Source of the DNA: a bacterium
GTDB lineage: Bacteria > Bacteroidota > Ignavibacteria > Kapaibacteriales > UBA7675
Direction of reading: 5' to 3'
Assembly (NCBI GenBank): GCA_030430495.1
Contig: JAUIKM010000017.1
Span: forward strand, 8,121-72,120
Length of the DNA: 64,000 nucleotides
The translations under genes and the position numbers were made by a program. Every line of letters starts with the position of its first letter. Position 1 is the first letter of the stretch. The notes below the pieces were generated by a model. The model saw nothing but the letters and a program-made list of their open reading frames with translations, was not told the DNA's origin and made no database searches. This document shows, piece by piece, positions 2 to 57,685 of this stretch.

Positions 2-3000
2 GAAACAACAATCGCAGTGCCACTGGAAATTACTCGGGACAACACGTCACTCAGCTATGTGGCAGCAATGGACATCGACACCGTGCAAACCTTCAATAAC
101 ATGGCGCTTCCTCAAGACTACAGCGTCGCGGTGCTGGATGCGGACGGACAGATTGTTTACCACTCCGACAATCAAAAAAGCGGAAGTGAACACTTTCAAC
201 AGGAATGCAACTGGGACCGCGACCTGGCGGGCCTGCTGAACGCGCGCACCGCCGAAGTCATCACCATCAAATACCTCGGAAAATTTAAACGGCTGTTCAC
301 AATGCCGATTCAGGGCAGTAACTGGACGGTTGTTGCCTACTACGACGTAGAGTCCTGGATTCACGACCTCAACTTCACGGCTCTGGCGACAGCCACGGTA
401 TTCGGCCTGTTGACTTTTGTTCTGCTTATCGCCGTACTTACCCTTATAGTCACTGTGCCCGGCCTGAGTGCGACAGCCCTGTGGCCGGACCCCAACGGAA
501 CCAGCGTGTACCTCTTCCTGGCCGGGTTAATCGCATTAACATTCCTGTTCCTGCTTTGCTGCCCGTCACTATGGGATGCGGACAACACAATGGTGCTGGC
601 CGTCACTCTGCCGACCTTTGTTTTAGTGTTTGTGTATCTGAGTCTTTATCGACGGCATCACTACCACCGCGCTTTTGGCACTCTGTATTTCATGTTTACG
701 CTCTATTTTCCTGTCATTGTAATACTGCAATCAGGCGGCAGCCTGACACAGGCTCTGCTACTGGTTTTGGGTGCAATGGCGCTTGTGGGGATTTTGCTGC
801 TGAGAAGGTGGCCCGGGTTAGCAACCGTGCTGTCAGAAAAATTGGAAGTCGAGAAGGCGGGCAAGGTCGTCAAGTGGATCGTTGTTAAATTCGCCCTGAA
901 AAACACAAAAGAAGCGGCCGGAGCAATAGCGGGCGACAGCAAGGACGAACGTCAAAGCGGCAGCGGAGACGTACAAAATGGCGACAACGGAAGCAAACAC
1001 CAGAATAGCGGAATCAACATTGGCATTCAGGCCTGGCGCATTTATCTGCCCCTGGCCGGCACCCTCGTGTCAGTCGTCACTCTGTTCTGTTTCATTTATC
1101 TTGTGCTGGTCGCAGAAACCCTGCCGGCTTCAGTCGTTTTGGTCAACCTGATGGTCTGCATCCTGACGCTGACCGCCGGATACTTCATCAGCAGAACAAA
1201 CACCGTCCCAATTGCCGGCGACAGCACGGAAGAAGAAAATCTCGCAGACACGACACCACAAGGTCGGTATTACGCGAGCGATCTGGCCTATGTTAACAAA
1301 CACCGGATTATGATCTTCACAATGGCCTTGTCGATCGGTTTCATTCCGGTGTTGGTCCTTTTTGAATTGTCGCTCGATGCGGCCCTTCACTCCTCGCTGA
1401 TTGAAGGGCAACAGGACCTGGCCGGCAAGGTGTTCGACCTTCATGCCGGGGCGAAAAATTCGACGCCCCATGCCGTCAACGAGAGTTGTTACGAGGGAAC
1501 GACCGACGTGTTTTTCACCACAAAAATGACCTTCTATCCAGCAACAGACCCGACCGGAGCAAGCCTTTACCAAAGTGCTGAGAGTCGGAACGGCAACATC
1601 GCATTTGGACAAATCGTGAGAGACGTTTTCCTCCGTATGGAACTCCAGTCTTCACAGTCCAGGAAAAACGGCTATCTGTTGCAAAACATGGCGCAAGACA
1701 GCTCGAGAGTTGTTCGCTTGACCAATTACTCTCCCAAGGCGCTGTGTACTGTGCACACCGATCCCGGCGGCAATGTGGTTTACAGTGAAAGCAGCATTTT
1801 TAACTTTTCATTGTGCAACTTCGCACACACCGACCTCAAGAGTTGGATCAGACTGGTCGTGGCGATGGCGGGGCTTCTCATTGCGTATGTTATAATCTTC
1901 CATATATCCAGACACTTTTACAGGAGGGTTGTTCTTTGGGAGTTGTTCCCTATCTCACGCAGGGGTATTCCAGCGGAAACACTGTACGACGTCATTCTCC
2001 AATGTATCAAAGCAAGACAGGAGAGCCGGAACAATCACAACAACTGCAAACCGCTGTACATTGTATACCGTCCATTGACGCCTGTAGAAGATTTCAGGGA
2101 ACCGCTGATTAAATGGTTTCAGTCCAAAAGTGTTGAAACCAAAGTGACAATCAAGTCAATTGAAGACATCATCGAGCTGTCCGAGCATCCTGGTATATAT
2201 TCCGTTAAAAAATCGACTTTCCTGGTCGATGCCTTTGACCTCGAGGCGATTGTTACGGAAAAGAACCAGACCTTTCTGATCGCTGTCAACAAACTCCACA
2301 AGCTTTGCAATATTCAGATTGTCATACTGGGGAGCATCACACCGGCAAATGCTTTCCTGCCGGATGACTTCGGTTCGGAAGGCCCTTCCCAGCCAAAGAG
2401 CGACGCGGCCAAGGCGGAAGGCGCGGAGTCCAAAAAGGGACATCCCACCCCGGCAACGCTTGTCAACATTGCCAACAGCTTTGCAGACTGGGACGTGAAG
2501 TATTCGCGCGACAACCCGCTTGAAGCGTCATTTAACCCGGAAAACTCGAACGACATGGTCAGCAGTTTCAGAACCCGAAACTCGGGCAAATACGACACCT
2601 TCAGTCTGGACAAACTGGAAGTGCTGCTGCTGGAAGAATGCCGTTTTGCACCCTGGATGCGCCGCCTTGTCAATTCAATTTTAGCGGAAGCCGACAATCG
2701 CAAGTTGCTGTTCACGCGCGAACTGTTGTTGAATACGATCCTGTTACAGGCAAAACCTTTCCATCTTTCCTGCTGGCATTCGTGTTCCCGCAGCGAAAAA
2801 ATCATTCTGGCAAACCTGGCCAAAGAAGGATTGATTAACGGTAAAGACCCGGTCGACACTTTAAGTTTGTTGAACCGGCGGATAATCTCTTTTGCACCGC
2901 ACCCACAAATATTGAGCCCGAGCTTTGAGCAGTTCCTGCGCGGCAAAGACATTCAGGAGGAAGCGCAAACTCACGAACAGCAGGCCGGAAAAGGTTCCTG

Positions 3001-3178
3001 GGAGGTATTGCGATATCCTATCATTGCAATCATGCTCTTCGCGGCCGGCCTGCTTGTGGTCACACAGCAGGATTTCGTCGATACCACCCTCGCACTGAGC
3101 GCTTCGGCATCCACAATACTGGGTGTGTTTGTCAAGTGGGTCTCCGGCTTCAAAACGCCCAAGCTTCCATTCGCATAG
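2..3178 (+). CDS. Giant polytopic membrane protein, paralog A (5'-partial; the reading frame is open to the window edge). It has a Cache-like periplasmic module, ~10 TM helices, and a large cytoplasmic domain of unknown function with a C-terminal TM anchor
   Basis: No stop upstream of the first in-frame GTG at 17, so the gene continues off-window. Residues 1-130 align with residues ~690-820 of the downstream 1648-aa protein (…RRIFTMP…W T(L/V)(I/V)VY(F/Y)…), and the C-termini share WxSCSRxEK(V/I)(L/I)LANLA(R/K)(D/E)G(I/L)(V/I)NGK. A clustered run of TM helices follows the Cache-like strand motif SNWTVVAYYDVE. Confidence 0.8.
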   Translation, partial: ETTIAVPLEITRDNTSLSYVAAMDIDTVQTFNNMALPQDYSVAVLDADGQIVYHSDNQKSGSEHFQQECNWDRDLAGLLNARTAEVITIKYLGKFKRLFTMPIQGSNWTVVAYYDVESWIHDLNFTALATATVFGLLTFVLLIAVLTLIVTVPGLSATALWPDPNGTSVYLFLAGLIALTFLFLLCCPSLWDADNTMVLAVTLPTFVLVFVYLSLYRRHHYHRAFGTLYFMFTLYFPVIVILQSGGSLTQALLLVLGAMALVGILLLRRWPGLATVLSEKLEVEKAGKVVKWIVVKFALKNTKEAAGAIAGDSKDERQSGSGDVQNGDNGSKHQNSGINIGIQAWRIYLPLAGTLVSVVTLFCFIYLVLVAETLPASVVLVNLMVCILTLTAGYFISRTNTVPIAGDSTEEENLADTTPQGRYYASDLAYVNKHRIMIFTMALSIGFIPVLVLFELSLDAALHSSLIEGQQDLAGKVFDLHAGAKNSTPHAVNESCYEGTTDVFFTTKMTFYPATDPTGASLYQSAESRNGNIAFGQIVRDVFLRMELQSSQSRKNGYLLQNMAQDSSRVVRLTNYSPKALCTVHTDPGGNVVYSESSIFNFSLCNFAHTDLKSWIRLVVAMAGLLIAYVIIFHISRHFYRRVVLWELFPISRRGIPAETLYDVILQCIKARQESRNNHNNCKPLYIVYRPLTPVEDFREPLIKWFQSKSVETKVTIKSIEDIIELSEHPGIYSVKKSTFLVDAFDLEAIVTEKNQTFLIAVNKLHKLCNIQIVILGSITPANAFLPDDFGSEGPSQPKSDAAKAEGAESKKGHPTPATLVNIANSFADWDVKYSRDNPLEASFNPENSNDMVSSFRTRNSGKYDTFSLDKLEVLLLEECRFAPWMRRLVNSILAEADNRKLLFTRELLLNTILLQAKPFHLSCWHSCSRSEKIILANLAKEGLINGKDPVDTLSLLNRRIISFAPHPQILSPSFEQFLRGKDIQEEAQTHEQQAGKGSWEVLRYPIIAIMLFAAGLLVVTQQDFVDTTLALSASASTILGVFVKWVSGFKTPKLPFA

Positions 3179-3323
3179 ATGTCGGCAGCCCGGCGCAAAA
3201 GCTGCGGCCCGTTTCTCGGCAGGCATTGCGGCCGGGTCCATTCGAAGGGTATCTACTCAATACGGGTCAGGTGTTTGCGGTTGGGTGCCGGCGCCTCTGA
3301 AACACCCAGCCTTCCAGGCGTCG

Positions 3324-3358
3324 AAAACGCTGAATTCATCATTCAGCGTTTTTTTGTT
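3324..3358 (+). terminator. Rho-independent terminator candidate downstream of paralog A
   Basis: Perfect 12-bp inverted repeat AAAACGCTGAAT-TCATC-ATTCAGCGTTTT followed by TTTTTGTTT. Lies 145 bp after the stop at 3178. Confidence 0.6.
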
Positions 3359-3418
3359 TATTCGAGAACCGATGTCGCATTCATTTGCTCAGAGATGGAC
3401 TCATCAACTTTTGGCTTC

Positions 3419-3444
3419 TCTCTGCGTGACAAACAAGAGAAAGC
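3419..3444 (-). repeat. Partial copy of the dispersed intergenic repeat (core …CTTTCTCTTGTTTGTCACGCAGAG on the minus strand)
   Basis: Reverse complement matches the CTTTTG(T/C)TTGTCACGCAG core of the copies at 18538-18556 and 11791-11806. Confidence 0.5.
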
Positions 3445-3637
3445 ACCGCAGGAAACAGCACCGGGCTTTCCTGAACGCCGCCGCCCCGCCCCATTGAATT
3501 CCCCCGCCATTTTTTGTAATATGGTCCTTTATCTACTGCGAGCGATATTCCACAGATCAACCATTGCAGAGAGCGCTCCCCCCGCCGCACCCACAATCCC
3601 CGCGGCGGCATTCTTTCACTGACAGGTCATCCCGATC

Positions 3638-6600
3638 ATGCCTACTCCAAATGCCCCGCGCAAAAAACTCCGCGTTCTGTCTTTCCTGATGATCGTCGCC
3701 ATCGCGATGGCCGCGGGCTACTATTTTTCGTTCTATACGCAAAAACGGGAGTACGTCGTCGACAGAAATTTCCGGCGTCTGGGCGTGATTTCCGAGCAGA
3801 TCGAAGCGCGCATGGACGGCGTGCACAACATCCTGGAAAATGCGGTCGAGAACATCGGCATCGATTCCACGCGCCGCGATTCCCTTATTGAGGTAGTAAG
3901 CCGGATAGAAAAAAATATTGAGGAACAGAAAACCGCGATCATTAACAGCCAATCCGACAAGGAAACAGTCAGTCAGGTAATTGAAGAATCGATTAAAAGC
4001 ATCCAGACCGGCCGCGCCAGGAGCGACGCAAAATTCACCGATATCCGGCGGCAGGAAACGAGTCAAAAGATCAGCCGCCAGGCGCTGCAACTAAACCAGG
4101 AGCTGGCGCGCGCACAGGACGCCGCACCTCGGGCGGAAGAAACAGACAACTCCAATGTCAACGCCCGCCAACTGGAAGATCTGCAGAATAAACTCGGCGA
4201 AGCACAGGCCGCCCTGGAATACATTAACTACCGCGAACGCCTGGCCGCAGCCATCGGCATTATTCCCTTTGCCACCCTTGAGTATGCCAATACCGTTTCA
4301 TCTGCCAATCATACACAGGCCGGAGACGGCGCGGCAGATGGAGGTGAAGCGGAACAGAATGAAAAGACTGATATTCTACAGCCGTTCAGCAGCAGCATCG
4401 AAAATGTTGAGTTAATCGGCCAGAAGCTCTACTTGTCCTACCTCAACAATGCCGGCAACGGTTCCGACCTCATCATCAGGGTGCGTATTGATCTGGAAGA
4501 GATGATCGCGCAGCAGATCGGCGATGTGATTTTTGACGACGTCTTTCTGGCAAAGTCCGGCGGCGAAGTGATCTACCAGCACAACAAACACCGCGGCAAC
4601 GTGCGCAGTTTTGACAAGGTGCAGGACTTAAACAACGATGAAACATCGTTTGAATTCGGCCAGCTGATAAAGTCGGGCGGCCTTGTCACGGCACAGCTTT
4701 CCGGGCGCGAAAACGTTCTGTTTGCACGACCCTTGCAGATGGAAATCGGCACGCGCGACAGCACAAATTTCAACTGGGTTCTCGTCGGGGCGGTGCCGTC
4801 GAATACGTTACTGAGCGAGAGCATGGCGCTGCCGACCAACACAATTCTCGTCTTTGTGTTTGTGGCGGCGCTGCTGATTCTGGTCTGGCCCCTGTTAAAC
4901 ATTCTCGGCGCGGGCACGTTCACGCGCCTGCGCAAGTTGGATCTGGCTTTTCTTGGACTTTCCGCGACGCTTGGCTCCGCCCTGATTGCCCTTTTGATTG
5001 TCGATCAGTATCAACTGACCAATCTGCGCAAAACGATGGACAATCAGCTGAAAGCCACGGCCGAAGAAGCGCACAACAACTTCCACACTGAGCTGCATCA
5101 GGCATACAGTCAGTTGCGTTTCCTGGCCGACGCCGTCGCGCCCGCGCTCGACTCAACTTACATCGAATGGGAAGACAACCCCTTGACCATTGTCACGCGA
5201 CGCTCGATCGACGACACACGCACGGTGCGCCTGACACTCGAAGGCCAGCTGCCGCGCACGCACAACATGTTTAACTTTGTGCGCGGCGACACGTCGGACA
5301 CGGCCGCCCCCGGCGGCTGGGACTACGTCAATTTTGACCGCGTCTTTTTTGCCGATCCATCGGGCGACATAAAGGTCAAGCTGGCCGCAGAGTCCGCCGC
5401 AACGCCCTTTCTTAACGTCAGCTCGCGCGACTACTTCCGCGACGTGCAGCAGCGGAACATGCTGGTCCTGCACGAAGGCGACCACGATCACGAGAGCGAC
5501 GACCACGGAGCACAACACGGACACGGCAAGGAGCGGTTGAATAAACACATCGACACGGTTGAGTTCGCGCTGAGTCAACACCACTCCTGGGCCAGCGGCG
5601 CCTACGAAACAACGATGGCAATTCCGGTTAATCCGGATACAACGCGCGAGGCGACCTGGCTGGCCGGCATGGACATCGGCACACTGGCCAGTTTTGACAA
5701 ACCGCTGCTGCCGCCGACGTTTAATTTCGTGCTGGTGGATGAGCATGGCAACGTGATCTATCACACCCGGCCGGAGCGCAGCGGCTTCGAGAATTTCCTG
5801 ACGGAATGCGACGGGAATCAACGTCTGGCGGCAACACTGGCGGGGCGGCGCAGCGATTGGTTAAGCAGCACCTACTGGGGTGAAAACAGGCGCATTTTTA
5901 CCATGCCGCTGCACGACACGCCCTGGACGCTGATAGTGTATTTCAGCGAGGAAGCCGTCCTGGACGGCAGCAATATCGTTATGCTGACGAGCACGCTGGG
6001 ACTGTACGGCGTTAACTTATTGCTGTTGTTGATTCTGGTCGTTCTCGGCTTTTCCAGCAGCAGCGTGCAGCTCGACTGGCTGTGGCCGAGCCTGCTGGAA
6101 TACCGCACCTATCGCAACCTGAGTCTTATTTACCTGGGATTTCTGATTTTCTACGCCGTCACTTTAACGCAGGATGTGCGCTTTGATCACGTGATGGTTG
6201 CGGCGCTGCTGCTGCCCGTGTTTTTTGTCTTCATAACCTACTTTTCGCTTAAACGCCAGGAGAAGTTAAACTTTCGCCTGGCGCTGATTATTCTGCCGTT
6301 TGCGGGATTCTATCCGCTCGCGGCGGCGGTGCAGTTGTACAACAGCCAGTTAATTCACTCGCCTGCCTGGAAATTTGTGCTGCCCCTCTTGTTGGTCAGC
6401 GTGTTGCCGGCGGCAATTGTCGGCTTGCGTAAGCTGATGAACCGCGCGAAGGGCATCAGGCGGGACTGGCGACGCGAGCTGCTGTTTAACGTCGTGACGT
6501 ATCACCTTCTCATTCTTGTTTTGCAGACAAGGTATCAGTTGTGGGACAACAAGATCGAGTTCTTCTATCACCTGATTCTGATTGCGATGACGGCCTACGC

Positions 6601-8584
6601 GCTCTACCTGTTCCAGTCAAAGCGCAATTATCTGGCGCGCGACCAGTATCTGCACGAATTGTACCGCCACCGCTCCGGCCAGGTGGCGGGCGTCCCGACC
6701 GCGCGTTTTTTCCGGCGCACCTATCGGGCATTTCTCATTATCCTGGTGATGACGACCGGCATCCTGCCGGTGATTGCCTATTTCATTCTTGCGAACGAGG
6801 CCACGTTCAATCTCCTGATTAAACACTCGCAGATTACCATGGCGCACCAGGTGCTCGAGCGCGAACACGAAGCCGCCGAGCGCGTAGCGCAGTTAAACAC
6901 CAATGAAGCGGACTACATCTACAACCGTCTGAAGCACGACGAACGAGGCATGTACCACGGCCCCTTCTTTGAATCCGGATTGCTCTGCACGGCCAGGCCA
7001 GTGCCCGCGGGCATCCGCGATACATTCGGCTTCGCCGGTATAATGGACACGGTTGTGATGCACGATCCGGAAAAAGACCCGGTCGGCAGCATTCTGCCGC
7101 GCCTGTTAAGCAGGCTGAGTCTGGCTGCCGAAAACAAGGTTGAACTGCGGCGTTATCTCGGCACCAGAGCGGCCGACAGCATCTGGAATACCGGCAGGTC
7201 GCTGGACGGCAGCAAAGCAGCCATGATTCACAAACGCCTGAACGGACCCGACAATGTCCTGATGCTCAGCTCCGGCGGAGTGCCGCATTTGAGAGCCGAC
7301 GGCTTCCGATTTGAGGAGACATCCATTTTTGTCGGCTTGTTCGTCGCCAGCCTGGCTTGCATTATCCTGTTGTACTGGGCCAGCTACAAGTTTGGCGAGC
7401 AGGTGCTGCTGAGTCGTTTTGCCAATCCGCGCTCCGGCCGCGGCACACACATCGAAATCCCGAAAGACGCGCCGCTGTTTATTATCAGCCGTCCTTTAAT
7501 TGCCGTGGACGAAATTATCGAGAACAGCACGTTCGACACGATTGATCCCGAATGGAAAGACCGTGTGATGTTCCTGGACCGCGCCGAACTGCTCGCTTTG
7601 ACAAACGACAAGATTGAAGCTATGGCGGAGACGGGCGTGCCGCTCTGCACCATCGAAGCATTCGACCTGGATCCGGAGTATTCACAAGCCAACATCCAGT
7701 TTATGCTCCGTGTTAACAAACTCAAGGTCGCGGCGGACTGGCAGGTAATTATTGTCGGCAGCGTCGACCCGACGATCGCCTTTCAGGATCAGTCCGTCAC
7801 GGCGGCCGGTGGCGGCAAAGCGGCGGATGCAGGCGCTGAGGGCGACGACAAAAAAGCTGTGCCTGGAGTCGACTCCAAAGACAACCTGGCGGCAGCGCGC
7901 GCCTACTCCACATGGCAAACCGCGTTTTACCAGGAAATGCACGATTCACAAATGTATCGCGCCGACCTGGAGGTAATAGTCGACGACCACAATCTCGACA
8001 GCGAACATCTGAAACAGTGCATCCGGATTATTGCACATGAGTTTCACATGACGCGCTGGTTGCGCCACCGCGGACGCAATCTGATGCGCCGCATCTGCCG
8101 CGATTACATGGGCTTTGACGAAGCGGCGCTGCGCCGCCAGATCATGCTCGAAGCCGAGCCGCTCTACCAGGCCATCTGGAATTCCTGCTCACGCGGTGAA
8201 AAAGTCCTGCTCGCCAACCTGGCGCGCGACGGCATCGTCAACGGTAAAAATAAACGCGGCGTGTACAGTCTGTTAAACAAACAGCTCATGATGCTTGTGC
8301 CGGACCCCAAACTGATCAACGACAGTTTCCGCGAGTACCTGCAGCGCGACGACATTCAACAGGAAGCCGATGCGCTGACGGAAAAATCCTCGCGTACGTC
8401 GTGGGAAAACCTGCGCACGCCTTTGATCGTTCTGCTCGCCGCCGGCGGCGCATTCCTGATCGTCACACAGCACGAAATCATCGACATGACAACCGCGATA
8501 ATTTCAGCTGTGACGGTGCTCGTGCCCGGCATCATGAAAGCGCTGGACTTTTTCCGCAATGGACGTGTGGCCAGCGGCGGCTGA
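3638..8584 (+). CDS. Giant polytopic membrane protein, paralog B (1648 aa). It has an N-terminal TM, a coiled-coil/Cache-like periplasmic module 1, two TMs, a Cache-like periplasmic module 2, ~8 TM helices, a ~620-aa cytoplasmic module of unknown function and a C-terminal TM
   Basis: ATG start with signal-anchor VLSFLMIVAIAMAAGYYF. Two segments end in the Cache-like strand motif (FNWVLVGAVPSNTLL and TPWTLIVYFSEEAVL), each followed by TM helices. No His-kinase, GGDEF/EAL, MCP or ATPase motifs recognisable. The C-terminal ~120 aa are conserved with paralog A. Confidence 0.85.
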   Translation: MPTPNAPRKKLRVLSFLMIVAIAMAAGYYFSFYTQKREYVVDRNFRRLGVISEQIEARMDGVHNILENAVENIGIDSTRRDSLIEVVSRIEKNIEEQKTAIINSQSDKETVSQVIEESIKSIQTGRARSDAKFTDIRRQETSQKISRQALQLNQELARAQDAAPRAEETDNSNVNARQLEDLQNKLGEAQAALEYINYRERLAAAIGIIPFATLEYANTVSSANHTQAGDGAADGGEAEQNEKTDILQPFSSSIENVELIGQKLYLSYLNNAGNGSDLIIRVRIDLEEMIAQQIGDVIFDDVFLAKSGGEVIYQHNKHRGNVRSFDKVQDLNNDETSFEFGQLIKSGGLVTAQLSGRENVLFARPLQMEIGTRDSTNFNWVLVGAVPSNTLLSESMALPTNTILVFVFVAALLILVWPLLNILGAGTFTRLRKLDLAFLGLSATLGSALIALLIVDQYQLTNLRKTMDNQLKATAEEAHNNFHTELHQAYSQLRFLADAVAPALDSTYIEWEDNPLTIVTRRSIDDTRTVRLTLEGQLPRTHNMFNFVRGDTSDTAAPGGWDYVNFDRVFFADPSGDIKVKLAAESAATPFLNVSSRDYFRDVQQRNMLVLHEGDHDHESDDHGAQHGHGKERLNKHIDTVEFALSQHHSWASGAYETTMAIPVNPDTTREATWLAGMDIGTLASFDKPLLPPTFNFVLVDEHGNVIYHTRPERSGFENFLTECDGNQRLAATLAGRRSDWLSSTYWGENRRIFTMPLHDTPWTLIVYFSEEAVLDGSNIVMLTSTLGLYGVNLLLLLILVVLGFSSSSVQLDWLWPSLLEYRTYRNLSLIYLGFLIFYAVTLTQDVRFDHVMVAALLLPVFFVFITYFSLKRQEKLNFRLALIILPFAGFYPLAAAVQLYNSQLIHSPAWKFVLPLLLVSVLPAAIVGLRKLMNRAKGIRRDWRRELLFNVVTYHLLILVLQTRYQLWDNKIEFFYHLILIAMTAYALYLFQSKRNYLARDQYLHELYRHRSGQVAGVPTARFFRRTYRAFLIILVMTTGILPVIAYFILANEATFNLLIKHSQITMAHQVLEREHEAAERVAQLNTNEADYIYNRLKHDERGMYHGPFFESGLLCTARPVPAGIRDTFGFAGIMDTVVMHDPEKDPVGSILPRLLSRLSLAAENKVELRRYLGTRAADSIWNTGRSLDGSKAAMIHKRLNGPDNVLMLSSGGVPHLRADGFRFEETSIFVGLFVASLACIILLYWASYKFGEQVLLSRFANPRSGRGTHIEIPKDAPLFIISRPLIAVDEIIENSTFDTIDPEWKDRVMFLDRAELLALTNDKIEAMAETGVPLCTIEAFDLDPEYSQANIQFMLRVNKLKVAADWQVIIVGSVDPTIAFQDQSVTAAGGGKAADAGAEGDDKKAVPGVDSKDNLAAARAYSTWQTAFYQEMHDSQMYRADLEVIVDDHNLDSEHLKQCIRIIAHEFHMTRWLRHRGRNLMRRICRDYMGFDEAALRRQIMLEAEPLYQAIWNSCSRGEKVLLANLARDGIVNGKNKRGVYSLLNKQLMMLVPDPKLINDSFREYLQRDDIQQEADALTEKSSRTSWENLRTPLIVLLAAGGAFLIVTQHEIIDMTTAIISAVTVLVPGIMKALDFFRNGRVASGG

Positions 8585-8654: not shown

Positions 8655-8718
8655 ACGCTGACAAACAAGAGGAAAAAGCAAGCCGCCCGCTTTGCAGAAG
8701 CGGAGGCGAAGCGCTCAG
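8655..8718 (-). repeat. Dispersed intergenic repeat, full-length copy (~92% identical to the copy at 52118-52181, opposite orientation). GC hairpin followed by a T-rich tail; terminator-like for the minus-strand arsR operon
   Basis: Reverse complement CTGAGCGCTTCGCCTCCGCTTCTGCAAAGCGGGCGGCTTGCTTTTTCCTCTTGTTTGTCAGCGTG versus 52118 CTGAGCGCTTCGCCTCCGCTTCCTCAAGCGGGCGGCTTGCTTTTTGCTTTTGTTTGTCGGCGCG. Sits immediately downstream, in the minus sense, of the arsR stop at 8843. Confidence 0.75.
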
Positions 8719-8842
8719 GCCTCAGGCGGTAAGTCCGCGGAGAAGGCCGATAAAACGCATTTAAACAACAACCGCCATACGGCGTCCCGTACGGCGGTGC
8801 GGAATGTTAACATCTTGAGAGTTGGATCGGGAGAATGTGCGC

Positions 8843-9754: not shown

Positions 9755-11533
9755 TTATGCCCCGGCGTCCGTCGTCGGCAGAGTGAACCAGATTTGAGTA
9801 TCGGAGTGATGCAGATGCACGCGCTGCGTTGAGCCCGCGCTGAGCTGCAATTCCCGCTCGAAGAAATAGAGGGCCTGGCCCCAGTGAACGTCGTCGCCGT
9901 CGGGGCCGCTGTTGAGTGTGAGGCCCTCGCCCAGGTCGAGCTCAAACCAGAACATGACGCCGTCGCAGGCGCCGCTTTCCAGCGGAGAAAATTCCAGATC
10001 GTGACGATGTCCGGCAGCCACGGCAGGCGAAGCGGGCGGCCGATAAAAATCGAGGGCCAGCGCTTCCACGACGGGGCTGAGCAGCCGGCAGGGCTCGCGG
10101 CGCGCGTCGATACCGACGTATTCCCAGGGAATGCGGAAGGCGTCAAAAGCCGAGAGATCAAAACCTTCGATCTGCGCAACGGGATTGACGAGGCGCAGTT
10201 TGGGGGCGCGAACAAGCGCGCAGTAAATCCGCGCCGCGGACGGAATCAGGCGCACATTCTCCGACGCAAGCTTGCCGGCGGCATGGCGCATGGTCGGCAG
10301 AATGCCTTCGCCCAGCAGCCCGGCATCGACGACTTCGGCCAGGATGACGTCGGCCGGACGCGGCAATTCGTGCCCGACGCGCAGACCGGTCGACTTGGCT
10401 TCGAACAACTGAATTTTATCGCTCATGGAATTGTCAGCCAGAACGCGGCGGGTGACGGGCGCAATCAGCGAGTTCATCTCGCAGGCGACGACGTCGCCGG
10501 CGCCGGCGCGCACGGCCATCATGGCGAGCAGCCCGCTGCCGCTGCCGATATCCAGCACCAGATCGTCCGGGCCGACGGCCTGCCGGATTGCGGCGTCAAA
10601 GCGACTGTTGCGCGCCGTATCGCTGAGCAGCTGCAGATGCCAGGCGGGGAAATTGCGGCGACGCGCGCGGCGCAGATTGCGGTCGGCCAGAAAATCGTCG
10701 GGATCGCGCGCCAGAATCTCCTCAAAAGCCGCAATCGACTCATCAACGCGATTCAGCATAAAAAGCGCATTGGCGCGGCGGCGCAGCGCGTCGCTGTTGG
10801 CGGGGTCGACCGCAACGGCCTGTTCATAACTTTCCAGCGCCGCCTGGTAGTCGCCGTTGTCCTCGTGCGCCGTGCCCAGGGAAACGTGCGCCAGCGACTC
10901 TTTCGGTTTGTCTTTCACGAGTGCGCTCAGCAGGTCGATCGCCGCGTTGACTTCGCCGTTCATACACAGAACATTGCCGATGTTGACGCGCGCGTGCACA
11001 TCGCCCGGATCGACGTTCAGCACTTCTTCGAACAGGGCGCGCGCTTCGTCCAGCCGCCCCTGCATGCGCCGCACATTGCCCAGGTTTACGAGCAGCGGCG
11101 CTTGCCTGGGCCGCAGTTTGCGCGCCGCCTCGTACTCCTGTGCCGCTTCATCAAGCCTTCCCTGCTGCGCCAGCACGTTGCCGAGGTTGAACAGATTGCC
11201 GAAATCGTCGGCTTTGATGTCGATCGCAGCGCGGTAGGCCCTGATCGACGCGTCGAACTCACTGCGTGCGTAGAGCACGTTGCCGAGCAGTCCGTGGGCA
11301 AAACCGTTGTGCGGATCCGCCTTGACGGCTCGCGCCAGCAGTTTGTGCGCCAGGTCCATGCTGCCGCGCTGATAGTGGATGGAACCGAGGTTTGCCAGGG
11401 TGTCGGCGTGTTTGGGGTTGGTCTGCAGCACGCGCTGATACGACTTGATCGCCGCATCAAATTTGCCCTGCAACTGACTGCGGAGAGCTTCCTGGAACAG
11501 CTGCTGCGCCCTGCCCGTGAGTATTTTGGCCAT
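9755..11533 (-). CDS. TPR-repeat protein fused to a PRMT-like (protein arginine N-methyltransferase family) class I SAM-dependent methyltransferase domain
   Basis: N-terminal ~300 aa contain many 34-aa TPR repeats (…A(L/I)xxYxxALxxxPxxxxAxxNLG…). The C-terminal half has motif I VLDIGSGSGLLAMMAVRAGA, the acidic post-I residue VVACEMNS, a double-E loop ADVILAEVVDAGLLGEGIL, and a THW-like loop VHWGQALYFF. Order and spacing are as in PRMT1/Hmt1. Confidence 0.75.
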   Translation of the reverse strand: MAKILTGRAQQLFQEALRSQLQGKFDAAIKSYQRVLQTNPKHADTLANLGSIHYQRGSMDLAHKLLARAVKADPHNGFAHGLLGNVLYARSEFDASIRAYRAAIDIKADDFGNLFNLGNVLAQQGRLDEAAQEYEAARKLRPRQAPLLVNLGNVRRMQGRLDEARALFEEVLNVDPGDVHARVNIGNVLCMNGEVNAAIDLLSALVKDKPKESLAHVSLGTAHEDNGDYQAALESYEQAVAVDPANSDALRRRANALFMLNRVDESIAAFEEILARDPDDFLADRNLRRARRRNFPAWHLQLLSDTARNSRFDAAIRQAVGPDDLVLDIGSGSGLLAMMAVRAGAGDVVACEMNSLIAPVTRRVLADNSMSDKIQLFEAKSTGLRVGHELPRPADVILAEVVDAGLLGEGILPTMRHAAGKLASENVRLIPSAARIYCALVRAPKLRLVNPVAQIEGFDLSAFDAFRIPWEYVGIDARREPCRLLSPVVEALALDFYRPPASPAVAAGHRHDLEFSPLESGACDGVMFWFELDLGEGLTLNSGPDGDDVHWGQALYFFERELQLSAGSTQRVHLHHSDTQIWFTLPTTDAGA

Positions 11534-27320: not shown

Positions 27321-27450
27321 CCGCACCGGCGGAACGTCTGAACCCGCGTCTGTATTCCACGGCCGGGTCCCGGTGTGCGGCCGGCGCGGACACCGAATAA
27401 AACGACAGGGGCTGCGAGACACACAGCCCGCTTGTGTTTTATGTGATTGT

Positions 27451-30400
27451 ATGTTTATTCAGGCAGCCCGGATATTGAGAACGTCAGACACATACCATCA
27501 CGGACCGTTGGTTGCGCGGGCACTGCTCCTGTGCGGCCTGATTCTCCTGTTCGCCATTGCGAATATGCGCGCTCAGGATGAACGCGACTACCTTGGCCGC
27601 GAGTTTTTCCTATGTTTTCCACCGAATATTCACAAAGCGGGCGGACAGTCGCCTCCCGACGACAGCCTCTACATTTACATCAGCTCCGACAGGCCGACGA
27701 CCGGACGGATTGAGTTCAGCGACCGCGAGGGCAATCGATCCGAGCGGCGCTTTAGCATCGAAGATCCCAATCTGGCGCATGTGGAGAGTTTTGCATACAG
27801 CGACTATGAACTGCAGGGCTACAACCTCAACGGCCTGCTCGACAATCCCGACTCACAGAACGAAACGGTTTCGCGCCAGGTTTTTTACGTGGTGGCCGAC
27901 CGCGACATCAGCGTGTACGGTCTCAACCACGCCGGCGCCTCCAGTGATGGTTTTATGGCCTTGCCGGCCGATGTGCTGGACGGATACTATGTGATTCCGG
28001 CCTTTCCGTCGGACACGCGCATTCTCGACAATCGCCCGGCGCCTTCGAGCACGCCCTCGCAGTTTGCCGTCGTTGCGTTGAATGACAACACGGATATTCT
28101 GATCCAAACGAACGCTCCCGTCCCGGTGGCAAACAAAGAGCCAATCCAGATCACGCTGCAGCGCGGCCAATGTTATCTGGTGCAGTCGCGCATTTCCGTC
28201 AGCGAACCGTCGAACGACCTGACGGGCAGCGTTGTGATCAGCGACAAACCCCTGGCCGTATTTGCCGGACACCAGCGCAGCCAGGTGCCGGGCGGAGATA
28301 CTCGGAACGCCGCGACGCAGGATCATATTATTCAGCAGGTAGCCCCCGTTTCGACCTGGGGCAAACAGTTCAGCTTGGCGCCACTGATCGTGACGGGCGA
28401 CGATGACGGCGTCGGCAATGACATTGTCCAGATAGTGGCGGCGCAGGCCCAGACGCGCATTTACATTAACGGCGCGGAAAAAGCTCTGCTGGATGCGGGG
28501 CAGAGCCTGCTGGAACCGATCAGCGGGCCGCTTTTCATCAGTTCGGACGAGCCGATTCACGTGACGCATCTGCGCCACTCTTCTTCGCTGACAGGCGCCG
28601 GTACGCCGCGATTGGGCGATCCCTTTGCCCTGTCGATCACGCCGAAGGAACAGTGGCTGGACAAATACACCTTTTCGACGGCACAGGCATTTTCCAACCT
28701 GAACCGCGAAGACCGCCTGGTATTTGAGTACCAATATCTGATGATCACGCTGCCGACCGGCACGCCGATCGATCTTGCGCTGGACGGCGTGGCCGTCAGC
28801 GACGAAAACTTCACGGTAGCGCCGTTCGGCGACTTTCTCTACGCGAATATTCCGGTGACGACGGGACGGCACGTGCTGCAATCGACCGTTCCATTCGGTG
28901 CGCATGTTTACGGTTTCGGCGAGGCGGACTCATACGCCTTCCCTGCCGGCGCGGCACACACGCCGATCAATCTGGAGTGCAGCGCCGACGCCGGACCGGA
29001 CATAACGGTCTGCCGCGGCGACACGGTAATGTTGAATGCCGTCAGTATCGGTTTTGACGAGCCGACCTTCCGCTGGTCCCCGGCGGAAGACCTGATCAGT
29101 TCGCCTTTTGCCAAACAGCTGCGGCTGCGGGCGATGCGAACCACCTGGTACAAACTGCTGGTACGCGACGAACGCGGCTGCCGCGCAGAAGACTCCGTGC
29201 TGGTCACCGTGACGGAGAAACCGCAAATCAACGCCGGGTCGGATCACGTGATCTGTCCCGGCGAGAGTGTGCAACTGGGATTTGAGGACCCGGGCGTACC
29301 GATCACCCGCGTGCGCTGGACGCCGGCGGACAAGGTCGATGATCCCGCCTCTCCCGCGCCGATCGCAACACCCGGTCAGGCGACCGGATTTATCGTCGAA
29401 GTCGAAACCGCATCCGGCTGCGTCGTTTTTGACACCGTGGTCGTCAACGTGCGCGAACGCCCCGTGGTCGACGCCGGTCCCGACGTCGACATATGCGAGG
29501 GCAGCAGCGCCGAACTGACGGCTACCGGCGGCGTCAGCTATGAGTGGCGTCCCGCGGACGGCCTCAACCGAACCAACATCTTCAATCCCATTGCCAAACC
29601 AGAAAAATCCACCAAGTATTTTGTCAGGGTAACGGACGCTTTCGGCTGCGTCAATGAGGATTCGGTCACGGTCTTTGTGAGCGAATGCCGGCCCTGCGAG
29701 TCGATTTCCGGCATCATCAACGAATATGCTTCGGTTGTGGCGCTGGATTATCCCACGCGGCGCGTGCGCGTCGTCGACGGTTCGGTGTTTGCACCGGGCG
29801 ATCTGGCGATGATCGTGCAGATGCAGGGTGCGGAGATCAACGTTGAGCAGGCGGAAAGCTACGGCCGGATTGAAAATCCGATGTCGGCCGGCGCATACGA
29901 ACTGGTGCGCATAGACAGCATTAGCCTGAACTTGCTCAGCCTCAATCGACCGATTCACAATCAATACGATCCCGCCGGCAAGGTGCAGGTGGTGAAAATC
30001 CCCGAATACGACCACGTTACGGTGGTGGACCGCGTGTTCGCGCGCCCCTGGGACGGCAATGTGGGCGGTGTGGTGGCCATGGCGGCCAACTGCCTGATTG
30101 TGGAAGACACTATTTCTGTGGATACGAGCGGCTTCCGCGGCGGGCGTTATGAAGTGCAATCAGGTTGCCGCTTTGAACCCAATACAACCGCCTGGGTGTC
30201 GGATCAGCTTTGTCGCTTTTCCTATCGCGGCGAAGGCACGGCGAGCTACGGAGTCCCGCCGAATGTCTACGGTCGCGGCGCACCGGCCAACGGCGGCGGC
30301 GGCGGCAACAACCACAATGCGGGCGGCGGCGGCGGCGGCAACGGCGGAGCGGGCGGCAAGGGCGGCAACGGCTTCCGCAACTTCGCCAACTGGGATCAGG

Positions 30401-53672: not shown

Positions 53673-54010
53673 TACTTGATCCCGATCCTTCGATCCCGCA
53701 GGGCCGTCAACGCGGCCGCCGCGCAAAAAAATCCAAAAGCCGTGAAACGATTATTGACCGGAGGCATTGTTTTGCGCGGACAGGGCTGAACCTCGGGCAT
53801 GCGGTGCGCCGATTTTTGGCCTTTCAGATGAGCCGGAAAGACCGTAATTTGCGGATCTTTTGACATGTGTAACCAGAAACGCCGCTCATACGTCTTCCAC
53901 ACCGGACCGCGGTCCAAATGCAGTCGTGCCGAGGTCCGCGGGAGCACATCCAAACTCTCTTTCCACGCGTGAATCCGGCCGCCGGACTCACTCTGCGCAA
54001 ATCGCTCACT

Positions 54011-57000: not shown

Positions 57001-57685
57001 CATGGTCGAAATTCCGACGGTAGAGGCGGATCCGACCGAACCCACGACCATCCCGATCACATTCAACAACAGCGAAAATGTGGCCTACGACGGCCCGCGC
57101 AGCTTCGAAGCACAGATCCGCCTCAACCAGCGTCTCTTCCTGCCGCAATCGGTGGAAAGTGAATTCGGCGAAGCTGAAATCTGGCGCAACGAGGTCGAGG
57201 GCGACTGGCGCATCATCGGCATCCGCGTGACGGGCAATTTTGGCGCGGAAGGCGTAGTGGTCAACATCCACGGCCTGCCGGGTCTGGCGGAAACGCTGAC
57301 GACGCCGATTGAATTTGTCGAGGAATCGCTCTACTGGAGCAGCGCGGTAACGACGCTTGGCAGCGCCGGCGAGCTGATTATCACGCCCGAAGATCCTTCG
57401 CGCAGGCTGATCAAACGCACGGCTCTGATGACGGTCACGGGCGTATACCCGAATCCCGCTTCCGGCGCTACGACGGTGGAAGTCAAGAGCAGCGAAGCCG
57501 CAGCCGTACAGTTGGTCATTGTCGACATGCTCGGCAACCGCGTGGCCGAACTGCCGCCGATCGACGTGCCCGAGGGCAGCTCCCGTCACCTCATCGACGT
57601 CAATGCCGTTCCCGTGGGCGCTTATCGCATTGTCTTGCAGGCAGCCTCCGACATCGCGTCTTCACCGCTACTCATTTCGCGCTGA
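54011..57685 (+). CDS. Large secreted T9SS cargo protein with WD40/beta-propeller-like and Ig-like/ASH-type beta-sandwich repeats
   Basis: Signal peptide (…FLACILCLTFGGLLPLNAQ). WD-like segment (…SADQSGVIRTWDV…, …LDGQLHLFDL…). Repeated beta-sandwich units. C-terminal T9SS sorting domain …TGVYPNPASGATTVEVKS…IVDMLGNRV…GAYRIVLQA…. Confidence 0.8.
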   Translation: MKDSPLPYLRRSFLACILCLTFGGLLPLNAQLITQLEVQSLPDITIDATNFPHVSARIRANYNGSAYALSTNEILIQEDNRTTRPQSVSAPNGAGFQTIEWLSTLRGVQRDPSSTNENPVGFNPATIYVIVDGQVSREQALQRRYDPPLVRFLALEPELTDVLPDVHFGTVAPGQDSVVSVYVQLQSAERVNDRELPITVDSVSISGDQFSWKWMGAAIDRNDQFPITIVSPFRYRIEVTFSPTSSNYVYDTLTVYYDGGATRSAYLIGNLFEVPDVSPLQMISPEGGAIFAPCEDIEIEWEGATPNLPVTVEFSPDAGRNWQKIGETVESSLSWRMPAEGSEQVRFRVTQPLQASETKTLQEQGEPIGNIGFSNDSKALLSADQSGVIRTWDVASAAAGFVYALPGARPNTQPYEALAVNYISDTQFAAVFKNIIALRDSMYIFTVGQADPVAQFGLPSTFPVSSVDIDVQGRFVAFGSDRSAEMVVVNLPDLSQRIVRFDAPVTGITLSGKQEKAVVSGLDGQLHLFDLPGFTRTGTIDLAHFQTINQLELSADGRFIAVATKAPRVTQQGGGRAAVHIIDVASGQTIRSFRRSSTDAVGFTFSSTARFLAIGFEGAPQTRIYNLPSDRDEGSIISHPGALTDIEFASDGFSIASSALTTIQNLKLRTFAFPERDSNDTFIRIVPPTVRLATPVLPDALIGASEPVTISTAICNDGETALDLDNLFLATGLMFRLVNDFVRDTLEPGECRDVELIFNPSDTGSIRDLLVFQSCEREFVIPLEARSQNRNIALLAADYDFGELCVGEERTVEIDLIRNDDNRPLLVNSIFIEDIATSPFVFAEVISDTLLQPGETLRARIRFSPLDLGFEDRIVTVEHSDQRQVFAEFDFRGVGVGAELDYSHETLTFIPEIRTRTVRITNNSANPVQINDVQSADPGVYRVTSSFPATIGPGESAEVKVEYLGPDAPIANSELRISSEPCSGTRSVVLGAYRATSMVEIPTVEADPTEPTTIPITFNNSENVAYDGPRSFEAQIRLNQRLFLPQSVESEFGEAEIWRNEVEGDWRIIGIRVTGNFGAEGVVVNIHGLPGLAETLTTPIEFVEESLYWSSAVTTLGSAGELIITPEDPSRRLIKRTALMTVTGVYPNPASGATTVEVKSSEAAAVQLVIVDMLGNRVAELPPIDVPEGSSRHLIDVNAVPVGAYRIVLQAASDIASSPLLISR

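Follow-up and report, generated by a model that had tools for sequence, protein, structure and literature searches.

The window, the whole 64,000-nucleotide stretch of DNA that was analyzed, begins with two adjacent genes, A and B, that code for very large polytopic membrane proteins with sensor-like periplasmic parts. The locus raises two questions: what the cytoplasmic part of these proteins is, and whether A and B act together. The initial annotation described a same-strand pair of neighboring genes with a common architecture, the first of them running off the window, and the ORFs and BLASTP comparisons agree with it. A and B are distant paralogs with ~25% identity; BLASTP aligned them over the last 380 amino acids (26% identity, E 2e-39) and over the second Cache-like domain and the first TM helices (29% identity, E 2e-27), and among 152 family proteins compared each was the nearest to the other outside its own orthologs. 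The full protein encoded by gene A has 1722 amino acids (P0004), the L001 copy gives at least 1561, and gene A scored 333 bits against the family HMM A2. The start codon of gene B is kept in L003 and L004. The features of the locus are listed in Table 1.

An exhaustive HMMER search recovered 2514 cluster representatives (50% identity) at E ≤ 1e-3, and 1292 at E ≤ 1e-10, spread over Bacteroidota, Calditrichota, KSB1 and others. Most full-length matches have 1300-1450 amino acids and were matched at the extreme C-terminus; the TM and domain layout was identical in all 25 members examined, with a full-length alignment at ~20% identity. Only the exhaustive search revealed the family. A word-index search with B returned just its two close orthologs, the same search with A found only A itself among 5.8 billion proteins, and the A/B C-terminal alignment returned nothing and missed B itself, which looks like a limit in candidate selection. 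A had no match in GTDB representatives and JGI metagenomes, and narrower alignments recovered only 2 and 1 loci in genome and metagenome scans; more diverse alignments lacked any stretch of sufficient conservation for such a scan. No model in Pfam, NCBIfam or PADLOC covers the family, whose members are annotated only as hypothetical or, in the NCBI name of homologs, as "cache domain-containing protein"; the earlier proposal of a new family holds in that no curated library covers it. A and B are probably paralogs that diverged long ago, members of a large and uncurated family of inner-membrane receptors with ~1300-1750 amino acids. This family has never been named or studied, and all functional steps given below are inferred.

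Table 1. Features of the A-B locus (coordinates within the window).
Feature	Coordinates	Strand	Remarks and basis
Gene A	2..3178	+	3' 1058 codons in window, 5' end outside; ORF list and translation
A dCache-like domain 2, C-terminal part	2..361	+	Ends in strand NWTVVAYYD (320..346); Pfam dCache_1
A polytopic TM bundle, TM4 to TM11 equivalents	386..1363	+	Hydropathy, alignment to B and family
A TM12-equivalent helix, precedes cytoplasmic module	1844..1909	+	Hydropathy, alignment
A putative degenerate AAA+/STAND-like module	1910..3013	+	Alignments to family
A Walker A position, YRPLTPVE	2051..2092	+	Alignment
A Walker B-like strand, TFLVDAFDL	2216..2242	+	Alignment
A sensor-1-like strand, IVILGSITP	2318..2344	+	Alignment
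A winged-helix motif, CWHSCSRSEKIILANLAKEGLIN	2771..2839	+	Alignment
A C-terminal TM hairpin, conserved TQ motif, then stop codon	3014..3178	+	Hydropathy, alignment
Hairpin between A and B, 13 pairs, then T-run	3323..3353	+	Scan; alignment with L003, L004
Conserved non-coding region upstream of B, near-invariant block CCCCGCCCCATTGAATTCCCCCGCCATTTTTTGTAATATGGTC	3354..3637	+	Alignment
Gene B	3638..8584	+	Complete, 1648 aa, P0001; ORF list and translation
B TM1, N-terminus inside	3674..3730	+	Hydropathy, loop charges
B periplasmic domain 1: long helical/coiled-coil part, then single Cache/PAS-like module	3731..4840	+	hhalign of domain 1 vs domain 2, topology
B strand NWVLVGAVP, end of domain 1	4772..4798	+	
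B TM2-TM3 hairpin	4841..5002	+	Hydropathy, loop charges
B periplasmic domain 2, divergent dCache_1	5003..5971	+	Ends in PWTLIVYFS (5921..5947); Pfam PF02743
B 8-helix TM bundle, TM4-TM11	5972..6790	+	AF2 model m818049a4c60b, alignment A5, loop charges
B soluble domain 3, ~175 aa alpha/beta, predicted periplasmic	6791..7315	+	TM parity, positive-inside rule; low-confidence model
B TM12	7316..7387	+	Hydropathy; AF2 helix 2-31 at pLDDT 88-92; topology
B putative degenerate AAA+/STAND-like module: NBD, helical lid, winged helix	7388..8410	+	
B Walker A position, SRPLIAVD	within 7472..7513	+	
B Walker B-like strand, LCTIEAFDL	7643..7669	+	
B sensor-1-like strand, VIIVGSVDP, then disordered insert	7745..7771	+	
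B winged-helix motif, IWNSCSRGEKVLLANLARDGIVN	8174..8242	+	
B TM13-TM14 C-terminal hairpin, family-invariant TQ motif	8411..8545	+	Hydropathy, topology
GC-rich hairpin, 12 pairs, T-run on minus strand	8771..8798	-	Scan

Periplasmic domains and membrane topology

Each protein crosses the membrane about 14 times with its N-terminus inside, a topology that is well supported: the short inside loops hold 28 lysines and arginines and the short outside loops only 1, and TM parity places the Cache domains outside and the cytoplasmic module inside. Three periplasmic domains per protein are also well supported. The first is a coiled coil followed by one Cache-like module, the second a divergent double-Cache domain, and the third, predicted to lie on this side, an alpha/beta domain of ~175 amino acids. 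The second domain (residues 456-778 of B) lies between TM3 and TM4 and is outside by the positive-inside rule. Its match to Pfam dCache_1 (PF02743, gathering score 45 bits) scored 22.5 bits in B (E 9.2e-5); the part of A in the window scored 16.7 bits (E 0.0055), the longer L001 copy 35.9 bits (E 7.5e-9) and homologs 33-41 bits. These matches are significant yet below threshold, which indicates a divergent Cache. The C-terminal ~110 amino acids of domain 1 were aligned by hhalign with the membrane-proximal module of domain 2 (probability 91-94%, E 1e-7), and domain 3 showed no similarity to domain 1 or 2 by the same program. The duplicated Cache-like modules of the initial annotation are supported, and the strand motif said to end them is present in B (NWVLVGAVP, PWTLIVYFS) and in A (NWTVVAYYD; Table 1).

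The TM bundle, earlier put at 8-10 helices, consists of 8, in B with a conserved WLWP after TM4 and LPxxxxF...Q in and after TM11; the conserved C-terminal block and its TM hairpin are present as well. In A the bundle contains a low-complexity cytoplasmic insert. A hydrophobic helix noticed earlier within a cytoplasmic region of 500-600 amino acids corresponds to TM12. Because of TM parity and the positive-inside rule, TM12 probably splits that region into a periplasmic domain of ~175 amino acids and a cytoplasmic module of ~340. AF2 models of the bundle and of domain 3 are only moderate (pLDDT 68) and neither had a specific fold match; the B bundle model resembled no transporter or channel family of solved structure. 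A SLATT-like two-TM effector was considered and rejected, as its matches (E 0.41 and 0.009) fell at different hairpins and were not significant.

The cytoplasmic module

Some family members carry canonical Walker motifs, A in the form GxPxSGK[ST] and B in the form hhhhDHF[DE]. The former is found in homologs ~340 amino acids from the C-terminus, for example as GPPNSGKS or GPPASGKS, and both MAFFT and hmmalign placed it onto SRPLIAVD of B and YRPLTPVE of A. The Walker B consensus aligns with TIEAFD of B and LVDAFD of A, where acidic residues are kept and the pattern is altered. Walker A was found in 20 of 85 full-length members, a count biased to degenerate forms because the profile that ranked the matches derives from A and B. 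In the alignment, GxxxxGK[ST] had no match in A, B or the two close B orthologs.

An AF2 model of B residues 1226-1648 (pLDDT 79.5, pTM 0.72) consists, in that order, of a beta-alpha-beta core, a helical domain and a helix-helix-hairpin unit; the NBD is continuous except for one inserted loop, which is disordered and acidic or glycine-rich. The alignment behind this model included Walker-A-bearing relatives, and the model therefore shows the fold of the family more than the details of B itself. A Foldseek search with the B module model gave DnaA (E 3.6e-4) and NRC3 (E 7e-4), then RuvB, ORC, Hda and clamp loader, and in one search the best fold matches were STAND immune NTPases. The model contains the three parts of the tripartite NOD definition, NBD, helical domain and winged helix. 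No significant profile match was found to a named STAND (NB-ARC, NACHT, AAA_16, nSTAND) or AAA+ family: the Pfam models AAA_16, AAA_22 and nSTAND3 were faintly matched in 1-4 of 25 members (AAA_16 in 3, best E 0.0033; nSTAND3 in 1, E 0.035) and in neither A nor B, and Walker-A-bearing members gave weak Hda/DnaA and AAA matches (NCBIfam Hda 12-19 bits, cut-off 195). PDB sequence profiles, including those with Walker-A-bearing members as query, returned generic P-loop matches only (E ≥ 0.009; DnaA at E 0.085-0.18).

The AAA+/STAND fold and domain order of the ~340-amino-acid module between TM12 and the C-terminal TM hairpin are well supported, and with somewhat better than even confidence we regard the cytoplasmic part of A and B as a degenerate nucleotide-switch module of AAA+/STAND type that has lost the ATP-binding loop. 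It had been called unrecognizable, a description superseded by the aligned Walker A and B of its relatives and by the AlphaFold match to STAND/AAA+ NTPases. The range proposed for modeling, residues ~1250-2050 of B, is impossible because B has only 1648 residues; the module occupies residues 1251-1591. The initial annotation was right that A and B have no canonical Walker motif and no classical signaling output: kinase, GGDEF, EAL, HD-GYP, MCP, cyclase and transporter domains had no profile match in either, and no further domain of effector or repeat type was detected fused to the module. It had also named a hit to a known output domain as evidence against its reading; the known fold counts in part against that reading, although it is the fold of a switch or oligomerization module and not of an enzymatic output.

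The altered site could be taken in two other ways. One is that A and B still bind or hydrolyze nucleotide at a non-canonical site and are true NTP-driven switches, since the acidic Walker B-like residues (IEAFD in B, VDAFD in A) and the sensor-1-like strand are retained and the NBD is strongly constrained (dN/dS 0.09-0.13 in B). We consider this quite unlikely. In A, B and both close B orthologs another sequence stands in place of the whole GxxxxGK[ST] loop, with Gly, Lys, Ser and Thr absent from the required positions, and many other members have unrelated degenerate sequences at the same position, which suggests repeated loss of function. The other is that A, B or both are functionless relics, as the missing catalytic loop and the lack of a detectable ortholog of A might indicate. 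Such decay is highly improbable: both ORFs are uninterrupted over 5.0-5.2 kb, every family-invariant residue of the winged helix and TM hairpin is kept in A, and dN/dS of B against two orthologs is 0.16 overall and lowest in the degenerate module (0.05-0.13, with 0.05-0.07 in lid and winged helix). These ratios show that purifying selection acts strongly on the module of B although its P-loop is missing, so B is not a pseudogene, and neither copy looks like one, an outcome the initial annotation had listed as adverse to its proposal.

Transcription units and gene neighborhood

The hairpin between A and B is kept upstream of the B orthologs, with a compensatory change in the stem (GCTG/CAGC versus GCCG/CGGC; L003, L004), and is probably an intrinsic terminator. 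A stretch of 330 nucleotides upstream of B is conserved as well and probably acts as promoter or leader. A riboswitch or structured leader was considered for this stretch and set aside, with no Rfam match and no convincing covariation in three sequences. The conserved terminator and upstream region point to B having its own transcription unit, and we infer that A and B are separate units that need not act together. The hairpin beyond B, which had been read as a strong terminator of the gene pair, lies 45 nucleotides past the stop of the ArsR gene. Both the hairpin and the convergent ArsR operon are real, but from its minus-strand T-run it is primarily a terminator of the ArsR/AHSA1 operon; it may act in both directions.

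L003, L004 and L008/L009 share the gene order SpoU methylase, T9SS cargo, B ortholog and convergent ArsR/AHSA1. The orthologs, at 85%, 78% and ~27% identity (the last in L008/L009), stand alone in this syntenic slot, and the cargo genes beside them, in three genomes, code for IgGFc_binding and Por_Secre_tail and are present in 1-2 copies. This genome has many IgGFc_binding and T9SS cargo genes, among them those at 27373..31758 and 53918..57685. Across the family the neighborhoods are unrelated and differ from locus to locus, consisting of housekeeping or metabolic genes. The A-B tandem is found only in this genome; at 8 other independent loci the gene is single-copy, and the pair, whose conservation had been suggested as a check, is not conserved as a tandem.

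This synteny, held down to ~27% identity of B, could mean that B and its orthologs are tied in function to the adhesin-like, T9SS-secreted IgGFc_binding surface protein encoded just upstream, which they would control or anchor on sensing a signal from outside, A being an extra inserted copy. We think this unlikely, given that between cargo gene and B ortholog there is a conserved hairpin terminator, that other family members have no such neighbor, and that with cargo genes so common in the genome the adjacency may be inherited synteny.

The initial annotation envisaged instead a heteromeric complex of a wholly new kind with unrecognized output, a signaling system, polymer exporter or surface-assembly machine. 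In its favor, A and B are adjacent on one strand, have one architecture and are mutually closest outside their own orthologs, T9SS cargo genes adjoin B orthologs in three genomes, and no curated family covers either protein. Nevertheless, we consider this reading improbable. Lone B orthologs, a conserved terminator and upstream region between the genes, a tandem confined to one genome with single copies at the 8 other independent loci, and an A that is a singleton among 5.8 billion proteins, without a close homolog, give no support to an obligate heteromer; the AAA+/STAND-like fold of the module argues against a wholly new kind of output, and we see no evidence for an exporter or assembly machine, the TM bundle model resembling no solved transporter or channel and the neighborhoods of the family being unrelated.

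Proposed function and comparison with known systems

Our best guess is that A and B are ligand-controlled, nucleotide-independent membrane switches. A small molecule bound by the periplasmic Cache modules would act by way of the TM bundle on the membrane-clamped module, which in A and B would shift its conformation or oligomeric state without nucleotide hydrolysis, much as a pseudo-NTPase. Lacking an enzymatic effector domain, the proteins would use their own membrane part as output (TM bundle plus conserved TQ-bearing C-terminal hairpin) or would recruit an unlinked partner. More speculatively, the family may be a new class of transmembrane receptors in which a Cache ligand drives STAND-like assembly, the polytopic membrane domain serves as the only effector, as a resistosome-like gated pore or a membrane-remodeling assembly, and the P-loop-less A and B are nucleotide-independent or regulatory subunits; we hold this as a minority possibility.

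A membrane module with these fold relatives could also belong to an anti-phage or conflict system, as an NTPase of STAND/Avs or KAP/YobI (Tmn) type whose oligomerization opens a pore or ion leak and leads to abortive infection. STAND immune NTPases head the fold matches, PifA (KAP) and Tmn (YobI) are membrane P-loop NTPases that act as membrane-acting defense proteins (PMC13001434), inactive STAND versions are known in conflict systems (PMC7159879), and with no separate effector domain the TM part could be the effector. We nonetheless give this reading little credence. PADLOC had no match for A, B and seven Walker-A-bearing members, the neighbors are housekeeping or metabolic genes that vary by locus and form no defense island, and the B locus is syntenic even at ~27% B identity, unlike mobile defense genes. 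Periplasmic Cache sensors suit small extracellular ligands, not cytoplasmic phage proteins, and the TM helices flank the NTPase domain, whereas in YobI they are inserted in it.

Among known systems, the AAA+ initiator and loader ATPases resemble the module of A and B in the fold of core and lid. DnaA/Hda, ORC/Cdc6 and clamp-loader subunits are soluble DNA-replication proteins; in ORC/Cdc6 a winged helix follows the lid, and in the inactive delta subunit the clamp loader already offers an example of an AAA+ fold that does without nucleotide. The A/B family has no sequence-level membership among them, and DNA binding is implausible between membrane helices. With STAND NTPases (NB-ARC/AP-ATPases such as CED-4, Apaf-1 and plant NLRs; MalT; the archaeal PAB2304 type) some members have Walker A and B in common, as well as the logic of a sensor coupled to a nucleotide-binding oligomerization module. 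In contrast to STAND proteins, the module is clamped between TM helices of a 14-TM protein, the effector domain is absent, a periplasmic Cache array takes the place of cytoplasmic TPR, LRR or WD-repeat sensors, and A and B have lost Walker A and have no significant STAND profile match.

The iSTANDs, catalytically inactive STAND proteins of vWA-MoxR ternary systems, likewise keep a STAND-type module after loss of catalytic motifs, presumably as scaffold or switch (Kaur et al. 2020, PMC7159879). Their defining feature is that they share an operon with vWA and MoxR genes, and the paper does not mention Cache domains (PMC7159879); no vWA or MoxR gene was found within 10 kb in the window or at 8 related loci. 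The KAP (PifA, Kidins220) and YobI (Tmn) proteins combine a P-loop NTPase and TM helices in one large polypeptide with presumed NTP-membrane coupling (PMC13001434), and the A/B family similarly consists of large single polypeptides with a P-loop NTPase-type module and TM helices. YobI has its TM helices inside the P-loop domain, whereas those of A and B flank an uninterrupted NBD-lid-winged-helix unit; KAP has four TM helices and is its own sequence family, neither group has periplasmic Cache sensors, and Pfam KAP_NTPase and PADLOC Tmn had no match in A, B or the family members tested.

Among the extracellular sensors of prokaryotes none is commoner than the Cache domain, and both innate immunity and the control of replication rely on STAND/AAA+ modules as their core switches. 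Like the Cache receptors (histidine kinases, chemoreceptors, GGDEF/EAL proteins and cyclases), A and B have an extracytoplasmic Cache between two TM helices; they differ in having two Cache-bearing domains, a third periplasmic domain, an 8-TM bundle and an AAA+/STAND-like partner. In a 2016 census of Cache architectures (PMC4822843) the outputs named are kinases, cyclases, diesterases and chemoreceptors, with no word of an ATPase or NTPase. No curated library lists a Cache domain joined to a STAND/AAA+ module by a 14-TM scaffold, and no account of such a union was found in the literature searched. For this window, the analysis replaces an unknown output with a testable module and removes the assumption of a heteromer. 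With a P-loop lost repeatedly while purifying selection stayed strong, the family offers a natural system for the study of pseudo-NTPases, and signaling by regulated oligomerization in the membrane, if it proved true, would add a new way of transmembrane signaling in bacteria, parallel to the channel-forming NLR resistosomes.

Organization and membrane topology of the two paralogs

The genes A and B are long ORFs that lie in the same frame (table below). Identical copies of both were found in two Logan assemblies, one of which lengthens A to at least 1561 amino acids, and a 116-kb NCBI contig supplied the full-length A protein, P0004, of 1722 amino acids. BLASTP comparison of A and B showed 26% identity across the C-terminal 380 residues (E = 2e-39) and 29% over the second periplasmic domain and the first TM helices (E = 2e-27), and in a full-length family alignment the identity was 14-28% in every region. 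Among 152 family proteins the best non-self matches of A were the B group and then P0005, a distant syntenic B-like protein; those of B, after its own orthologues, were P0005 and then A. As judged from this ranking and the low identity, A and B are real but old paralogs, and a recent tandem duplication is excluded. A close homologue of A was not found in a 5.8-billion-protein collection, the GTDB species representatives or the JGI metagenomes, and word-index searches retrieved only two close B orthologues, with 85% and 78% identity.

The layout of B was derived from hydropathy, AlphaFold helices and loop charges. The short loops contain 28 Lys and Arg residues on the side assigned as inside versus 1 on the side assigned as outside, and the parity of the TM segments puts the NTPase-like module on the inner side and the Cache domains on the outer side, which matches what each requires. 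As a consequence, the region described in the initial annotation as 500-600 cytoplasmic amino acids with an embedded hydrophobic helix more likely consists of a periplasmic domain, a genuine TM segment and a cytoplasmic module. Domain 2 matched dCache_1 with 22.5 bits in B (E = 9e-5), 35.9 bits in A (E = 7.5e-9) and up to 41 bits in homologues, values that are significant but below the gathering score of 45. In profile-profile comparisons the C-terminal ~110 residues of domain 1 and the module of domain 2 nearest the membrane aligned with a probability of 91-94%, and domain 3 showed no likeness to either. The duplicated Cache-like sensors proposed initially are borne out by these two results, and at the sequence level the sensors of A and B are divergent Cache domains.

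Features of the A/B locus (window positions unless a locus is named) and predicted layout of B (residues)
Feature	Position	Strand or location	Remark
A	2..3178	+	runs off the 5' end of the window
147-aa ORF	3179..3622		in frame with A and B
Upstream region of B	3308..3637; L003 5476..5871; L004 9225..9575		~330 nt, non-coding
Hairpin	3323..3353	near start of upstream region of B	13 bp and T-run; compensatory stem change
B	3638..8584	+	1648 aa
Hairpins (two)	8771..8798 and 8675..8693	between B and convergent ArsR gene	T-runs on minus strand
TPR/methyltransferase gene	9755..11533	minus	592 aa
IgGFc_binding/Ig_7 protein	27373..31758	downstream of B	1461 aa
7TM receptor	36703..38976
Por_Secre_tail protein	53918..57685	downstream of B
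T9SS cargo	L003 2416..5475; L004 6084..9224; L008 3059..9270	before B orthologues	~1000 aa
TM1	13-31		N-terminus inside
Domain 1	32-401	periplasm (predicted)
TM2-TM3 hairpin	402-455	membrane
Domain 2	456-778	periplasm (predicted)
Eight-helix bundle TM4-TM11	779-1051	membrane
Domain 3	1052-1226	periplasm (predicted)
TM12	1227-1250	membrane
Cytoplasmic module	1251-1591	cytoplasm (predicted)
Disordered insert	1384-1420 (window ~7787..7897)	within module	pLDDT below 50
TM13-TM14	1592-1636	membrane

The cytoplasmic module

Many homologues include a Walker A motif (GPPNSGKS, GPPGSGKT etc.) about 340 residues from the C-terminus, just past the equivalent of TM12. MAFFT and hmmalign agreed in aligning this column with SRPLIAVD in B and YRPLTPVE in A, neither of which is a Walker A sequence, the family Walker B hhhhDHF[DE] with TIEAFD and LVDAFD, respectively, and the sensor-1-like strand VVVISTIDP with VIIVGSVDP of B. 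By sequence, A and B are thus P-loop-less members of the family. Among the best 150 matches, Walker A was intact in 20 and degenerate in 65 of the 85 full-length proteins, a sample in which proteins resembling A and B are over-represented, as these two supplied the query profile. The degenerate versions are of several unrelated kinds (SRxxxWxx, RKxPIxRx and GxPxLAxx, for example), and Walker B is often altered too in P0005-P0152, the top family matches (D to E or G). This variety suggests that the NTPase was inactivated repeatedly and independently within the family. Members bearing Walker A gave weak Hda/DnaA and AAA matches.

An AlphaFold model of residues 1226-1648 of B, built on a 25-sequence family alignment (pLDDT 79.5, pTM 0.72), starts with a beta-alpha-beta core and a disordered insert, continues with a helical domain and then a winged helix of helix-helix-beta-hairpin form, and ends in the C-terminal hydrophobic helices. 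Fold comparison matched it (values in parentheses as listed) to the TIR-NLR WRR4A (11.2, 271), CED-4 (10.4, 235), a wheat NB-ARC resistosome protein (10.3, 270), PAB2304 (9.4, 223) and DnaA (8.8, 186), followed by RFC, TnsC, Cdc6 and MalT, and Foldseek to DnaA (E = 3.6e-4), the NLR NRC3 (E = 7e-4), RuvB, ORC, Hda and clamp-loader subunits. The two methods agree in assigning the predicted model to the AAA+ superfamily, with the NBD-lid-winged-helix order of STAND or ORC, and the module is accordingly predicted to be a degenerate AAA+/STAND-like NTPase module. The output region regarded at first as unrecognisable is therefore recognisable as a fold, through predicted models and the Walker motifs of homologues; at the sequence level none of the named families matched the module significantly.

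The insert, rich in Gly, Ala, Asp and Lys, separates the sensor-1 strand of the NBD from the strand that follows and has an equivalent in A. It varies in length and sequence across the family and evolves fast (dN/dS up to 0.57).

Versus the two orthologues, dN/dS was 0.16-0.17 for the whole of B, 0.23-0.28 for periplasmic domain 1, 0.09-0.13 for the P-loop-less NBD, 0.05-0.07 for the lid and winged helix, and 0.07-0.09 for the C-terminal TM hairpin. No other part of B is as constrained as the degenerate module. The value for the whole gene, the uninterrupted ORFs and the retention of family-invariant residues in A argue against the possibility, raised initially, that one copy is a pseudogene.

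Genomic context of A and B

The contigs of the 85% and 78% orthologues and of P0005, which is syntenic with B yet only about 27% identical, share the order SpoU-type methylase, one or two T9SS cargo genes (IgGFc_binding and Por_Secre_tail), B orthologue, convergent ArsR/AHSA1 pair and, beyond it, a gene for a TPR protein. None of the three includes a second family member, and five further independent loci with unrelated neighbors have a single copy. The tandem is therefore not conserved.

The region upstream of B is conserved about as well as coding sequence and holds a near-invariant 43-nt block, CCCCGCCCCATTGAATTCCCCCGCCATTTTTTGTAATATGGTC, at both close B-orthologue loci. It had no counterpart in Rfam and lacked convincing covariation; it may serve as promoter, operator or leader. 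Its hairpin follows A in the window and the T9SS cargo gene in relatives. This conserved stretch indicates that B has its own upstream region and is very probably transcribed from its own promoter. An obligate A-B heteromer, a strict form of the heteromeric complex suggested in the initial annotation, has adjacency as its sole argument and is disfavored by this region and by the lack of a conserved tandem. The strong hairpin earlier taken as the terminator of the pair is primarily that of the convergent operon: with their T-runs on the minus strand, the two hairpins past B serve ArsR/AHSA1, and a clear intrinsic terminator of B's own was not found.

The 147-aa ORF lies inside the conserved intergenic region, spans the terminator hairpin, has no Pfam match and is probably spurious. 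P0002, the 85% orthologue, probably starts earlier than called (MIIAIAMG..., L003 5872); translation from an in-frame ATG located 48 nt before that position yields MPRPDAPRKKLRVLSFLMII, matching the N-terminus and TM1 of B. In the TPR/methyltransferase protein a long TPR array is joined to a C-terminal PrmA/PRMT-like region (PRMT_C, E = 6e-9; PrmA, E = 5e-8), an unusual fusion, and its gene adjoins the ArsR/AHSA1 pair in related loci too. Another membrane sensor of the window is the 7TM receptor, whose 7TMR-HDED domain is extracellular and whose HD hydrolase domain is intracellular (7TM-7TMR_HD).

The family, a possible mechanism and known systems

When the C-terminal module was searched exhaustively with HMMER, 2514 cluster representatives matched at E ≤ 1e-3, of which 1292 reached E ≤ 1e-10. 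The majority are 1300-1450 amino acids long and align at the extreme C-terminus. All 25 members examined have their TM segments and soluble domains in the same order. They are annotated as "cache domain-containing protein" (Calditrichota, KSB1, Bacteroidia) or "hypothetical protein"; two come from Saprospiraceae MAGs. These Saprospiraceae relatives, and the T9SS sorting domains encoded in the window, suggest Bacteroidota as the source of the DNA. Beyond the Cache domain, Pfam, NCBIfam and PADLOC recognised nothing. The most conserved positions lie outside the NBD: E-C in the lid, W..CS..EK..L..LA..G in the winged helix, an S-W...R-P segment, and a T-Q pair in TM13.

No enzymatic output domain was found in A or B, nor a conserved operon partner at the loci examined. 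As in Cache receptors, binding of a ligand in the periplasm would be passed on through the TM helices; the cytoplasmic module, anchored in the membrane at both ends, may then change conformation or oligomeric state, as STAND and AAA+ switches do. In A and B this switching would proceed without nucleotide hydrolysis. The clamp-loader delta subunit, which was among the fold matches of the model, is a nucleotide-free AAA+ precedent. The catalytically inactive iSTAND proteins (PMC7159879) are a further precedent. The family could in principle consist of defence proteins, by analogy with Avs, KAP or Tmn (PMC13001434), but its periplasmic sensors are of the small-molecule type, its neighborhoods are housekeeping, its synteny is long-term and there were no PADLOC matches.

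The outputs named in a 2016 census of Cache architectures (PMC4822843) are kinases, cyclases, diesterases and chemoreceptors, with no mention of an NTPase, and the literature searched contained no description of a Cache plus STAND/AAA+ membrane architecture. A and B combine known modules, Cache and STAND/AAA+, in an undescribed, widespread membrane architecture; this is more ordinary than an unrecognisable output domain would imply, although the family is still unstudied and its design unusual. Sequence-membership tests placed the module in none of NB-ARC, NACHT, AAA_16, DnaA/Hda, KAP and YobI, and the predicted model suggests that its workings resemble those of the nucleotide-binding oligomerisation modules of STAND or AAA+ proteins.
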